In this document: piece after piece, positions 45,301 through 51,300 of the stretch
Position numbering within the stretch: position 1 is the stretch's first letter
How the letters are laid out: every line of letters starts with the position of its first letter
NCBI RefSeq assembly: GCF_056746865.1
Contig: NZ_CM163382.1
Length of the DNA: 64,000 nt
Direction: 5' to 3' (one strand)
Program-made: the position numbers

Positions 45301-48300
45301 GTTGTGGAGGTAGCAGAACGGGTAAAAGCAGGCGAATGGACCGCGAGCATAGGCCCGGACTGGTACGGCACTGACGTTCACCATAAAACACTGGGCATTG
45401 TCGGGATGGGACGGATCGGCATGGCGCTGGCACAACGTGCGCACTTTGGCTTCAATATGCCCATCCTCTATAACGCGCGCCGCCACCATAAAGAAGCAGA
45501 AGAACGCTTCAACGCCCGCTACTGCGATTTGGATTCACTGTTACAAGAGTCAGATTTCGTTTGCCTGATCCTGCCGTTAACTGATGAGACGTATCATCTA
45601 TTTGGCGCAGAACAATTCGGCAAAATGAAATCCTCCGCCATTTTCATTAATGCCGGACGTGGCCCGGTGGTTGATGAAAATGCACTGATTGCTGCATTGC
45701 AGAAAGGCGAAATTCACGCCGCCGGGCTGGATGTCTTCGAACAAGAGCCACTGTCTGTAGATTCGCCGTTGCTCTCAATGGCCAACGTCGTCGCGGTACC
45801 GCATATTGGTTCAGCCACTCATGAGACGCGTTATGGCATGGCTGCCTGTGCCGTGGATAACTTGATTGATGCGTTACAAGGAAAGGTTGAGAAGAACTGT
45901 GTAAATCCGCACGTCGCGGACTAAGCCGCGACTGCGTGGAGTAAAGCCCGATAATCGCTCGGGCTTTTACTCTTTATTGGGTTGCAGTAACTGCTGTAGT
46001 CCAGGCCTGATTAAACGCCTGATGCTGTGCCGGTAATGGCGCAATCAGTTTGTTATATTCACTTGCCTGCTGCGAAGTCGGGAACTGGATGCCATTTGCG
46101 ACAAAGCTCACCTGAGTACCTTGCTGAGCAATGTAGTCTCCAACCATCACCAGTTGTTGCGTGAAAGTTTGTGCCGCCGGAATCAACGGTTGCAACGCAT
46201 CAGCTGGCGTCGTTACCACTTTGGTGAATGCCTGATCGAAGACCGGTTTCAGGTCATCGCTCTGTTTTAGCGCAGAGTGCGCAGCATCGGCCTGCAACTT
46301 CGCATTTTGCAGCTGTTGCGCCAGTACACCCAGAGAACCGTTCATTTCACGCAGTGGGCCGCTTTGCGTAACGTAATCCTGCGGTACGCGAATTGCGTTA
46401 ACGCTGTCTACAACCGGGCGCAGACCGGAATCCATCGCCTGATTCACCTGCTGTGAATAACCATACAGAATCGCGTAATCAGAGACAAAAGGACCAAATT
46501 GTTTTTTCTGATCGGCAGTCAGGGTAGGTAGACGTTCACCGCTACGCATCACTGTATTCTGCAGGAAGTCGATAAACGCTTTACGCTGATCGCCTTCTTT
46601 ATCAAAACACCCACTCAGGCTAACTACCATTAATAACGCCGCAAGAGGCGCAAACCAGCGAGAGCAGGACTTTCCTGTCGCCATTTTCTTACTCCTTTCA
46701 CCCAAAAAAAGCGCACAACGACACACGCGTGTCTGACGTGACAAGGATAGTCCAGGACAAGCTTGCAGGATACCCTTTCTACGTAATCTTCCTGGTAAAA
46801 TCATGGAGAAAATGAAACAAGGTTAATTTGTTGTTTCATTGTTAAAAAATGATAGTGCCGTTGCTTTTTTTGTTGCCAGAGATTAACGCCTTCTCAGAAC
46901 GTTAGATTTTCGAAATCTTTACAAACCGGGAGTGGTAAGAGATATATCGGCATTTATCAGATCGTTAGGTGGCTATAAGTCACGCTAAATGACTGGCTGA
47001 ATCGAATCATAGCCAGAGCATGCCCTGACTACACCCCGCTGTGTCTGTTTTTCCCGACTATTCTTAATGAGCTTCGATGCAATTCACGATCCCGCAGTGT
47101 GATTTGAGGAGTTTTCAATGGAATATAAAGATCCAATGCATGAGCTGTTGAGCAGCCTGGAACAGATTGTTTTTAAAGATGAAACGCAGAAAATTACCCT
47201 GACGCACAGAACAACGTCCTGTACCGAAATTGAGCAGTTACGAAAAGGGACAGGGTTAAAAATCGATGATTTCGCCCGGGTTTTGGGCGTATCAGTCGCC
47301 ATGGTAAAGGAATGGGAATCCAGACGCGTGAAGCCTTCAAGTGCCGAACTAAAATTGATGCGTTTGATTCAAGCCAACCCGGCATTAAGTAAGCAGTTGA
47401 TGGAATAGACTTTTATCCACTTTATTGCTGTTTACGGTCCTGATGACAGGACCGTTTTCCAACCGATTAATCATAAATATGAAAAATAATTGTTGCATCA
47501 CCCGCCAATGCGTGGCTTAATGCACATCAACGGTTTGACGTACAGACCATTAAAGCAGTGTAGTAAGGCAAGTCCCTTCAAGAGTTATCGTTGATACCCC
47601 TCGTAGTGCACATTCCTTTAACGCTTCAAAATCTGTAAAGCACGCCATATCGCCGAAAGGCACACTTAATTATTAAAGGTAATACACTATGTCCGGTAAA
47701 ATGACTGGTATCGTAAAATGGTTCAACGCTGACAAAGGCTTCGGCTTCATCACTCCTGACGATGGCTCTAAAGACGTGTTCGTACACTTCTCTGCTATCC
47801 AGAACGATGGTTACAAATCTCTGGACGAAGGTCAGAAAGTGTCCTTCACCATCGAAAGCGGCGCTAAAGGCCCGGCAGCTGGCAACGTAACCAGCCTGTA
47901 ATCTCTGCTTAAAAGCACAGAATCTAAGATCCCTGCCATTTGGCGGGGATTTTTTTATTTGTTTTTCAGGAAATAAATAATCGATCGCGTAATAGAATCT
48001 AGTGTTATTTTTGTGAAGAATAAATTTGGGTGCAATGAGAATGCGCAACACCGTAAGAAAGGCGGGAATAATTTCCCGCCGAAGACGCTTACTCTTTCAA
48101 TTTGCAGGCTAAAAACGCCGCCAGCTCATAACTCTCCTGTTTAATATGCAATTCACACAGTGAATCTCTTATCATCCAGGTGAAAAATAAAAGCGTGAAA
48201 CAAATCACTATTAAAGAAAGTAATCTATATTTCTGCGGCATTCCCAGCCCCCTGTGTTGATTTCCAACGAGTAAGAGGCTAACCTTATGGTGTCTATGCA

Positions 48301-51300
48301 TAGAGGGGCCTCACTTTGATTTATAGTCAGGTGGGGCTTTTCTCTGTCTGCCTTTCGGTGAATACCTGAGACAAACAGTCTCAAGCACCCGCAGCTATTC
48401 TAGCTTAATAAGTTCGTTTCTTCTCCTTGATATAATCCTAAAAAAATCTCATAAAATTAATATATGAGACAATCTTTATTCAGCAGAAGATTATTAAAGG
48501 TTGCTCTATTATTTAGCGATAAAAAAGCCTGCCAGATGGCAGGCTTTTTAATAATGGCGTTATTACTGTAACAGCGAAATATCCGCAACGCGCAGGAACA
48601 GTTCGCGCAGTTTCTCCAGCATGGTCAAACGGTTGATACGCAATTCTTTGTCATCAACCATGACCATCACTTTATCGAAGAAGGCATCAACCGGTTCACG
48701 CAGCTCTGCCAGTTCGACCAGCGCATCCTGGTAACGACCTTCCGCAAAGTACGGCTCCAGCTTGTCACGTAGCACCACAACCTGCATCGCCAGTTTAATT
48801 TCTTCCGGCTCTTTCAGAGTAGAGGCATTCACGCGGTCGCTCAGCACTTCGTCAGATTTCGCCAGAATGTTAGATACACGCTTGTTCGCCGCCGCCAGTG
48901 CTGCAGCTGCATCCAGGGTACGGAAGTGCGATACCGCTTTCATTCGGGCATCGAAATCAGCCGGACGAGTCGGACGACGCGCCAGTACCGCCTGGATGGT
49001 GTCAACAGTGTAACCTTCGTCCTGATACCAGGCGCGGAAGCGACCGAGCATAAAGTCGATAACATCATCAACCACGTTGGCATTTGTCAGCTTATCGCCA
49101 TACAAACGCACCGCTTCTTCGGTCAGGGTTTGCAGGTCAAGATTGAGGTTCTTCTCAACGATAATACGCAGCACGCCAAGTGCGGCACGACGCAGCGCAA
49201 ACGGGTCTTTGTCGCCTTTCGGATGCTGACCGATACCGAAGATACCCGCCAGAGTATCCATCTTGTCAGCAATCGCCAGCGCACAGGCTACCGGGTTAGA
49301 CGGCAGGTCATCACCGGCAAAGCGCGGCTGATACTGCTCGTTCAGCGCCACTGCAACATCTTCCGCTTCGCCATCGTGACGCGCGTAGTGCATCCCCATA
49401 ACGCCCTGGGTGTCGGTGAACTCGAAGACCATGTTGGTCATCAGGTCGCACTTGGACAGCAGGCCCGCACGGGTTGCGTGGTTAACGTCAGCGCCAATCT
49501 GTTCAGCAATCCAGCCAGCCAGCGCCTGGATGCGGTCAGTTTTGTCACGCAGTGTGCCAAGCTGTTGCTGGAACAGCACGGTTTGCAGACGCGGCAGATT
49601 ATCTTCCAGACGTTTTTTACGGTCGGTGTTGAAGAAGAACTCGGCATCCGCCAGACGTGGACGAACGACTTTCTCGTTACCAGAGATAATTTGCTGCGGA
49701 TCTTTCGATTCGATGTTGGCAACGAAGATAAAGTTCGGCAGCAGTTTGCCGTCGTTCGCATACACCGGGAAGTACTTCTGGTCACCTTTCATGGTGTAAA
49801 CCAGCGCTTCAGACGGCACCGCGAGGAATTTCTCTTCGAATTTTGCGGTCAGCACAACCGGCCATTCCACCAGCGAAGCGACTTCTTCCAACAGGCTTTC
49901 GCTTAAGTCAGCGTTACCGCCAATCTTACGCGCCGCTTCTTCGGCATCGGCTTTAATCTTCGCCTTACGTTCTTCGTAATCGGCGATGACTTTCCCGCGC
50001 TCACGCAGAATTTCCGGGTATTGATCGGCATTGTCGATAGTGAATTCCGGCTCGCCCATAAAGCGGTGGCCGCGAATCACGCGATCGGACTGAATGCCCA
50101 GAATGGTAGCCGGAATAACTTTGTCGCCCAGCAGCAGGGTCACGGTGTGCACCGGACGCACGAAGTGCACGTCGCTTGCACCCCAGCGCATCAGTTTCGG
50201 GATCGGCAGTTTCGCCAGCGAAGTCGCAACCATATTCGGCAGCAGTGCTTCGGTGCTTTCGCCCTTCACGTGGGCGCGATACAGCAGCCATTCACCTTTA
50301 TCGGTAGTCAGACGCTCAGCCTGGTCAACGGTAATACCGCAACCACGCGCCCAGCCTTCTGCCGCTTTGCTCGGTTTGCCTTCAGCGTCGAACGCCTGGG
50401 CAATCGCCGGGCCGCGTTTTTCGATTTCACGATCCGGTTGCGCTTCCGCCAGGTTAGCTACTTTCAGCGCCAGACGACGCGGAGCAGCAAACCATTGAAC
50501 GGTGCCGTGTGCGAGGCCAGCGTTATCCAGCTCCGCAGTAAAGTTCGCAGCAAAGGACTCAGCCAGGCTGCGCAGTGCTTTTGGTGGCAGCTCTTCAGTG
50601 CCGATTTCCACCAGAAAAGTTTTCTCAGACATAGCCGCCTCTTACTTATCTTTGTTGCACATCGGGAAGCCGAGGGCTTCACGGGAAGCGTAGTATGCTT
50701 CTGCCACTGCTTTGGTCAGGGTGCGAATGCGCAGAATATAGCGCTGACGCTCGGTGACGGAGATGGCTTTACGCGCATCCAGCAGGTTGAAGCTGTGGGC
50801 GGCTTTCAGAATACGTTCGTAGGCTGGCAACGGCAGCGGATTTTCCAGCGCCAGCAGCTGCTGCGCTTCTTTCTCGTACTGCTCAAAGCAGGTGAACAGG
50901 AAGTCCACATCCGCGTATTCGAAGTTGTAAGTGGACTGCTCCACTTCGTTCTGATGGAACACGTCGCCGTAGGTGGTTTTACCCAGCGGGCCGTCGCTCC
51001 AGACCAGGTCGTAAACGCTGTCTACGCCCTGAATGTACATTGCCAGACGTTCCAGACCGTAGGTGATCTCGCCGGTAACCGGTTTACACTCCAGACCACC
51101 AACCTGCTGGAAGTAAGTGAACTGCGTCACTTCCATGCCGTTCAGCCACACTTCCCAGCCCAGCCCCCAGGCACCCAGCGTCGGGTTTTCCCAGTTATCT
51201 TCCACGAAACGGATGTCGTGGATGGTCGGGTCCATGCCCAGCTCTTTCAGAGAACCAAGGTACAGCTCCTGAATATTGTCCGGCGATGGCTTAATGACCA

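Follow-up and report, generated by a model that had tools for sequence, protein, structure and literature searches.

Does the hokA locus of this genome represent an intact module of the hok/sok type, and could it still act as one? The question arises from a 64,000-nucleotide stretch of contig NZ_CM163382.1 (assembly GCF_056746865.1), hereafter the window. A preliminary description had pointed there to a complete hokA toxin frame between cspA and glyS, free of insertion sequences (IS), had stated that IS150 disrupts this locus in K-12, and had suggested that type I toxin-antitoxin (TA) activity may be retained.

The gene is flanked by cspA (47689-47901, plus strand) and glyS (minus strand, stop at 48563), which are separated by a spacer of 661 bp (47902-48562). 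No insertion sequence was found within this spacer, which aligns from end to end, at 95.6-100% identity among the sampled matches, with genomes annotated there with hokA and a small ORF only; the colinearity with IS-free genomes bears out the description on this point. hokA itself lies at 48089..48241 on the minus strand and encodes 50 amino acids (MPQKYRLLSLIVICFTLLFFTWMIRDSLCELHIKQESYELAAFLACKLKE) plus a stop codon. It was identified from the ORF list, Pfam and NCBIfam, carries the name hokA in the matching genomes, many of which show the identical order cspA-hokA-glyS, and is nested in a 70-aa ORF spanning 48301..48089 on the same strand. The product matches the Pfam family PF01848 HOK_GEF with 76.2 bits (E 1.4e-21, cutoff 22) and the NCBIfam HokA equivalog NF007290 with 129.7 bits (cutoff 89), and the 50-aa frame, read from 48241 to 48089, is indeed complete. 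Moreover, Cys29 and Cys46, the conserved pair of the toxic disulfide form, are readable in the translated ORF. According to the literature, HokA encodes both cysteines and therefore has no need for RNA editing, and the overexpressed protein is toxic (10.1101/2025.08.07.668861).

Completeness of the ORF does not by itself separate this allele from that of K-12, since the K-12 hokA ORF is complete as well, and its protein is identical to the HokA of the window. In MG1655, an IS150 of 1443 bp (3720633-3722075) lies between hokA and glyS; it interrupts the mok/sok leader at a point 32 bp 5' of hokA, outside the ORF. Alignment to K-12 thus confirmed the stated disruption and located it at this very locus, rather than elsewhere. 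The left junction of the K-12 element corresponds to position 48273 of the window and splits the putative sokA promoter. Beside the element K-12 has lost 38-39 bp, and a BLAST comparison of the two spacers, together with the junction sequences, delimits the segment present here and missing there as 48274..48312. This segment holds the Sok -10 hexamer, the first 21 or so nucleotides of SokA, and the Shine-Dalgarno (SD) sequence and AUG of mokA. The K-12 insertion has no target duplication.

A second IS150 allele does carry a clean 3-bp duplication, which identifies the IS-free form as the state before insertion. IS150 has entered the hokA locus independently at least twice, and in one further case a plasmid hok, at the homologous nucleotide. 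The IS-free locus is found in 2830 of 5426 complete E. coli genomes (52%), and an interrupted one in about 48%. By subtraction, some 940 genomes carry an interruption other than the K-12 type; the figure of 1236 genomes obtained for the second IS150 allele is an upper bound only, because similar junctions elsewhere (on a plasmid, for instance) inflate the count.

Could the missing element simply have been lost in assembly, the repeat having been collapsed in the source data? As a repeat with multiple copies, IS150 can go missing from short-read assemblies, and nothing more specific speaks for such an artefact. Against it, the spacer is colinear with, and 100% identical to, that of the complete genome of strain 118UI, and the uninterrupted form recurs in the 2830 complete genomes. 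In addition, the window retains the 39 bp that K-12 has lost, and neither a duplicated 3-bp target nor a remnant of an IS end is found at 48273 or 48314-48316. We therefore consider an assembly artefact exceedingly improbable.

The sequence upstream of hokA contains what a hok-family mRNA leader is expected to contain. The region 48239..48390 (minus strand) matches the Rfam sok family RF01794 over the full model (1-157), with 120.2 bits and an E-value of 2.5e-28 for a gathering score of 59; the matches of both the ORF and the leader are far beyond chance. Within the leader lie the tac element, a metastable hairpin, the ucb box, the Sok target, the mokA start and the hokA SD. The promoters of hokA and of sokA both escaped a sigma-70 consensus scan and were placed by homology to the R1-type plasmid locus, and the ends of the hokA and SokA RNAs were placed by homology too. 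The putative hokA -10, TAGAAT (48397..48402, minus strand), read from the sequence, occupies the position of the TATGAT -10 of R1-type plasmid hok and sits 6 nt 5' of the presumed +1; the promoter looks weak by consensus, since there is no good -35. The tac element GGGUGCUUGAG (48380..48390, minus strand) would form the 5' end of the mRNA, position 1 of RF01794 falling at 48390, and aligns to the R1-type GGCGCUUGAGG. A ucb-like box, AAGCCCC (48333..48339, minus strand), is paired to a 5' GGG.GCUU both in the minimum free energy (MFE) structure of the truncated RNA and in the Rfam consensus structure.

The search for a mok frame, which the description had left for follow-up, was successful. An in-frame mokA AUG at 48301 is preceded, at a distance of 7 nt, by the SD sequence GAGG (48309..48312, minus strand), which is kept in the alignment with R1-type hok and absent in K-12. 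The mokA frame of 70 codons (48089..48301, minus strand), taken from the ORF list, is read in the same phase as hokA and ends with it at a common stop codon, and the K-12 annotation shows the same layout, with a mokA pseudogene ending where hokA ends. By analogy with the family, translation of hokA is probably coupled to that of mokA.

On the opposite strand, a candidate SokA of about 50-53 nt is placed at 48292..48344 (plus strand) by its fold and its position within the Rfam match. Its putative promoter (48257..48285, plus strand) consists of a -35 TTGATT (48257-48262), a 17-nt spacer and a -10 TAACCT (48280-48285); this arrangement, missed by the consensus scan, corresponds in position to the Sok promoter of the R1-type locus, and when the two loci are aligned the conserved block TAGCCTCTTAC falls, as its reverse complement, in the promoter spacer. 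The predicted RNA folds into a long hairpin (-25 kcal/mol, z -4.6), with a short tail on its 5' side and a U-rich CUUUUCUCU tract after it. It is complementary to nt 47-99 of the hokA mRNA, a stretch that takes in ucb together with the SD and AUG of mok. In K-12, a sokA pseudogene remnant is annotated on the plus strand to the right of IS150.

Downstream of hokA, a GC-rich hairpin with a terminator-like match (48061..48080, minus strand; 8 pairs, 6 of them G-C) follows directly after the stop codon and aligns with the GGCGGG...CCCGCC hairpin of R1-type hok. It is present in both folds described below, and is presumably the barrier that gives the processed, active mRNA its 3' end. Further on lies the fold-back inhibition element fbi, CUCAUUGCACCC (48028..48039, minus strand), which does not vary among 10 of the 11 compared alleles. 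In the predicted fold of the full-length RNA of 365 nt (48390..48026; -137 kcal/mol, z -8.0), fbi pairs with tac in both the MFE and the centroid structure. When the RNA is trimmed at its 3' end to 335 nt (48390..48056), tac is predicted to pair with ucb instead, and the target hairpin forms, again in both structures. The folds would thus reproduce the switch from tac-fbi to tac-ucb typical of the hok family. The mok-start haplotypes were also compared with the 3'-UTR variants that pair with them in the full-length fold, and since the haplotype is not followed by the 3' T/C variant, we make no claim of covariation.

Point mutations in these elements might have inactivated an otherwise uninterrupted locus, and none that would do so was seen on comparing 11 alleles over tac, ucb, the mok SD and AUG, the hok SD and AUG, the Sok promoter hexamers, the Sok terminator, the 3' hairpin and fbi. 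No frameshift or stop was found in 10 of the 11 aligned alleles. Altogether, the window very probably carries the ancestral uninterrupted chromosomal hokA/mokA/sokA allele, a type I TA locus of the hok/sok family between cspA and glyS. It is the normal uninterrupted form, already known and ordinary, an IS-free hokA/mokA/sokA having been described by Pedersen & Gerdes 1999.

If this ancestral allele followed the R1 paradigm, its weak promoter would drive a hokA mRNA in which the tac-fbi pairing locks out both ribosomes and Sok. 3' exonucleases would then slowly shorten the mRNA as far as the hairpin at 48061-48080, and it would refold, exposing the mokA SD and AUG together with the Sok target. 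The abundant but unstable SokA would pair across nt ~47-99 of the mRNA, blocking translation of mokA, and hence of the coupled hokA, and triggering cleavage by RNase III. Upon loss of SokA, HokA would be made and enter the inner membrane, where it would depolarise or kill the cell.

Whether the locus does any of this is a separate matter, and retained TA activity, as judged from the sequence, is plausible but unproven. The sole IS-free hokA locus tested is that of E. coli C, for which Pedersen & Gerdes 1999, as related in a 2025-26 preprint, observed neither post-segregational killing (PSK) nor activation by rifampicin. Negative results in both assays are likewise related for hokC of ECOR24 and hokB of K-12, from which those authors reportedly suggested inactivity of the chromosomal hok/sok loci. 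The idea that an IS-free hokA mediates PSK is contradicted by later summaries of that 1999 study. In view of the E. coli C result, 'intact' may not mean 'active'. By analogy with the IS-free E. coli C allele, for which this has been reported, the ancestral allele of the window is most likely phenotypically silent under laboratory conditions.

One reading is that the locus is fully active, so that loss of SokA, through a block of transcription or loss of the DNA, leaves a stable hokA mRNA that is translated and kills the cell, and that the recurrence of IS150 in other genomes reflects selection to disarm a costly toxin. Every cis element is present and the fold switch is predicted, overexpressed HokA is toxic, and R1 hok kills from one chromosomal copy when Sok is absent, which indicates that chromosomal dosage is not limiting (PMC9841398). 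The interruption of the locus in about 48% of genomes, with at least two independent IS150 events besides the one on a plasmid hok, would fit such selection, and a preprint proposes that disruption of hok/sok by mobile elements is adaptive. The reported negative E. coli C result speaks against full activity, although the allele of the window differs from that tested one at 6 nt of the Sok 5' end and mok start and at two HokA residues. The hokA promoter looks weak, and a target preference of IS150 together with clonal sampling would explain the recurrence without selection. We regard full activity as possible yet doubtful. It is improbable that the locus is, more particularly, an active killer whose antisense RNA has its own specificity, SokA of one type not neutralising the other, with the repeated IS150 hits on a single nucleotide of hok-family leaders as selected disarmament instead of target preference. 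The SokA/mokA-start haplotype of the window is one of two common ones, which differ at 6 of ~13 bases, and it is not the one tested in 1999.

The same negative results for E. coli C hokA, ECOR24 hokC and K-12 hokB, with the authors' reported proposal of inactivity, can also be taken to mean that the locus is a decaying relic, intact in sequence and persisting neutrally, but functionally dead by subtle defects such as insufficient promoter strength, poor processing of the 3' end or failure of the mRNA to refold. The poor promoter consensus agrees with this, as does the presence of insertions in about half of the genomes with no obvious harm. A relic is harder to reconcile with the 95.6-100% identity of the ORF, mok, tac, fbi and hairpins across the sampled IS-free genomes, or with the lack of frameshifts and stops in 10 of 11 aligned alleles. 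The energy of the full-length fold is also strongly non-random (z -8), and the HokA peptide is still toxic. Neutral decay seems to us a tentative and rather unlikely explanation.

In the annotation of this genome, mokA and sokA ought not to be labelled pseudogenes. K-12 is the atypical strain here, and the hokA/sokA module is intact in sequence in most natural E. coli. The window offers a native, IS-free chromosomal hok locus on which function in persistence, phage exclusion or anti-addiction could be tested; it adds no new handle on the role of chromosomal hok beyond published work.

Compared with known systems, the locus shares with K-12 MG1655 (hokA b4455; mokA and sokA pseudogenes; IS150 insJK) its site, the 3' UTR elements and the hokA promoter and tac, whereas the K-12 damage, that is IS150 and the lost mok start and Sok 5' region, is absent from the window. 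Its toxin belongs to the same family as that of R1 hok/sok, and the order of elements is also that of the R1/IncFII locus (compared here with pMTY1886_IncFII): promoter, tac, metastable hairpin, ucb, Sok target and mok start, TAGCCTCTTAC, hok, GC hairpin and fbi. It differs from R1 in being chromosomal rather than on a plasmid, in a leader ~20 nt shorter and in a Hok of 50 aa rather than 52 aa, with a mean column identity of 72% at the DNA level; PSK has been demonstrated for R1 hok/sok, not for hokA. The relative that has been tested is the E. coli C allele of Pedersen & Gerdes 1999 (NZ_CP020543.1, 346016-346676), which occupies the same cspA-hokA-glyS site in an IS-free spacer of 661 bp, has identical tac, ucb, fbi and SD sequences and Sok promoter hexamers, and shows the same predicted switch from tac-fbi to tac-ucb. 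The two alleles are distinguished by 6 substitutions in ~13 nt at the mokA start and SokA 5' end (GCCCCTCTATGCATAGA in the window, GCTACCCTATGCCTGAA in E. coli C), by HokA residues 36 and 47 (E36 and K47 in the window, G36 and N47 in E. coli C), by 2 bases between -10 and +1, and by a few changes in the 3' UTR. Finally, the hokA homologue 'hok-6' of the AIEC strain NRG857c has been reported as intact and without IS elements (PMC7232551), an observation of the same kind as ours, matched by description.

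The window belongs to an E. coli chromosome, and a 661-bp spacer separates cspA (47689-47901, plus strand) from the end of glyS (48563 in the ORF list, minus strand). This spacer contains a 50-aa minus-strand ORF, hokA (48241..48089; AUG at 48241, stop codon at 48091-48089), itself enclosed in a 70-aa ORF starting at 48301 on the same strand. For the 50-aa product, Pfam HOK_GEF gives 76.2 bits (E 1.4e-21) and the NCBIfam HokA equivalog 129.7 bits (cutoff 89). The 152-nt stretch that leads up to the start codon and runs into it (48390..48239, minus strand) matches the full Rfam model RF01794, named 'sok', with 120 bits (E 2.5e-28). 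By these scores the hokA locus is real, far beyond chance. The spacer is 100% identical to that of strain 118UI, and in sampled matches it is colinear, with 95.6-100% identity, with genomes in which only hokA and a small ORF are annotated there. Thus hokA is complete and the spacer free of insertion sequences, as the preliminary description had stated.

The RF01794 match (48239-48390), which reaches as far as the hokA AUG, is on the hokA-sense strand and therefore represents the hokA mRNA leader, SokA being the complement of the middle part of that leader. The Rfam 'sok antitoxin' family in effect models the hok mRNA leader, and annotation pipelines would therefore place 'sok' on the wrong strand here. 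Other features of the region include the Rfam cspA thermoregulator (47529-47956, 498 bits), which covers the whole cspA mRNA, and a 23-aa ORF (48041-48112, plus strand), equivalent to K-12 ysaE, that runs antisense to the 3' end of hokA and the 3' hairpin and that matching genomes list as a hypothetical protein. Rfam STnc370 matches below threshold at 48489-48555 (48.3 bits, gathering score 54), on a GC hairpin beside the glyS stop codon; most simply, this hairpin is the glyQS terminator, its symmetry making it read as a terminator on both strands.

Regulatory elements were placed by alignment to the hok/sok locus of R1-type IncFII plasmids, by the Rfam alignment and by reading the sequence directly. 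The hokA mRNA +1 and the 5'-end element tac, GGGUGCUUGAG (48390-48380), are preceded on the minus strand by a -10 hexamer TAGAAT (48402-48397) that lacks a good -35; ucb, the alternative partner of tac (AAGCCCC, 48339-48333), follows. The mok frame, which the preliminary description had not resolved, opens at the mokA AUG (48301) behind a GAGG Shine-Dalgarno sequence (48312-48309). Downstream of hokA come a GC hairpin (48080-48061), which the terminator scan picked up as well, and the fold-back inhibition element fbi, CUCAUUGCACCC (48039-48028). On the plus strand, a putative sokA promoter (-35 TTGATT at 48257-48262, 17-nt spacer, -10 TAACCT at 48280-48285) would drive SokA from ~48292 to ~48344. 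We infer the hokA and sokA promoters and RNA ends by homology; a simple consensus promoter scan called neither promoter.

SokA is predicted to form a 5' tail and a long hairpin, after which comes a U-rich tract (-25 kcal/mol, z -4.6). For the full-length hokA RNA (48390..48026, 365 nt; -137 kcal/mol, z -8.0), the prediction contains the tac-fbi lock, in which GCACCC at the 3' terminus is paired to the first six bases of the RNA. When the last 30 nt are removed, back to just beyond the GC hairpin, tac is predicted to pair with ucb instead, and the GAGG...CCUC target hairpin bearing the mokA start forms in the shortened RNA. These folds reproduce in silico the hok-family pathway established in the R1 literature, from which we infer the steps beyond folding. 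The full-length mRNA would be inert and slowly activated by 3' exonucleolytic trimming; the activated mRNA would then either be bound by Sok and cleaved by RNase III, or undergo mok-coupled hok translation leading to membrane damage.

The preliminary description gave the K-12 locus as disrupted by IS150, and MG1655 indeed carries this element between hokA and glyS (3720633-3722075); its annotation lists both mokA and sokA as pseudogenes. The insertion is in the leader, and the K-12 hokA ORF is intact and encodes the same protein as the window, so that it is the intact regulatory leader, rather than the ORF, that sets the window apart. In the spacer alignment the left IS150 junction falls 32 bp before the hokA ATG, at window 48273, and K-12 lacks window 48274-48312 (38-39 bp) as well as a target-site duplication (1133/2577 in the K-12 sequence L001). 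The missing segment holds the Sok -10, ~21 nt from the SokA 5' end, and the mokA Shine-Dalgarno sequence and AUG. The K-12 allele is thus not a simple insertion, a deletion or rearrangement having come afterwards.

Over 5426 complete E. coli genomes, the spacer is uninterrupted in 2830 (52%), so the IS-free form is the majority, and 1659 (31%) carry the K-12-type hokA/IS150 junction. Subtraction leaves about 940 genomes with interruptions not of K-12 type, most of them a second IS150 allele, whose direct count of at most 1236 is an inflated upper bound since similar junctions occur elsewhere. In this allele (L003, 4416-5858), which is independent of the K-12 one, IS150 is inserted the other way round, with a clean CTT duplication (window 48314-48316, inside the SokA hairpin) that marks the IS-free form as the pre-insertion state. 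On plasmid pE105-4 (NZ_CP072315.1; L015, 1844-3286), a different hok-family locus carries IS150 at exactly the homologous nucleotide, 5 nt past GGCCTC, oriented as in the second allele and with a GGT duplication, which suggests that hok leaders hold a site-specific hot spot for IS150; hok/sok genes have already been listed as hot spots for insertion of mobile elements (preprint 10.1101/527788). Strain 43905 (H16, NZ_CM135146.1, 198322-199376) has ~390 bp of extra DNA within the spacer, where the match overlies a yidD annotation; this is a third kind of interruption.

Eleven alleles were aligned: the window, E. coli C, the K-12 and second IS150 alleles stripped of their IS, and seven IS-free genomes spanning the identity range. 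Among them, the window shows no variant destroying tac, ucb, fbi, either Shine-Dalgarno sequence or AUG, the hairpins or the Sok hexamers. At 48393-48392, in the stretch separating the hokA -10 from +1, its mRNA strand reads TG and that of the other ten CA, a change unlikely to be disabling; strain 118UI, aligned separately, also has TG. In IS-free strain Esc27, a 1-nt deletion immediately ahead of the hokA ATG takes mokA out of frame, and a G-to-A substitution in fbi would cost one tac-fbi pair; this allele exemplifies point-mutation decay in another lineage.

An IS-free hokA locus is already known, from AIEC strain NRG857c (PMC7232551) and from E. coli C, the source of the IS-free hokA in Pedersen & Gerdes (1999), as related in PMC3562002. 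As cited in PMC7232551, Pedersen & Gerdes (1999, Mol Microbiol 32:1090) found that IS elements, point mutations or rearrangement had inactivated the five K-12 hok loci. As cited in 10.1101/2025.08.07.668861, the IS-free hokA of E. coli C reportedly neither mediated post-segregational killing nor responded to rifampicin, and they therefore suggested that the chromosomal loci are inactive. HokA overexpression is toxic, and HokA, whose gene encodes both cysteines, does not depend on RNA editing (10.1101/2025.08.07.668861); one chromosomal copy of R1 hok without Sok is lethal (PMC9841398). The preliminary description is partly supported: it was right on the identity of the locus and its contrast with K-12, while retained activity, as it suggests, is only plausible, and the single published test speaks somewhat against it.

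E. coli C and the window share a common architecture, and the same fold switch is predicted for both. They differ by six bases within ~13 nt at the mokA start and SokA 5' end (48289-48307); two residues of HokA and a small number of further sites differ as well. The block defines two haplotypes, GCCCCTCTATGCATAGA in the window and GCTACCCTATGCCTGAA in E. coli C, outside which the locus diverges by only a few percent, and the second IS150 allele is found on both. Both are common among IS-free genomes, with ~1,100 of the window type and ~1,700 of the E. coli C type, rough estimates from evenly spaced sampling of the match ranking. Complementarity is kept in each because SokA is cis-encoded, and one may speculate that the window and E. 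coli C types differ in antisense specificity.
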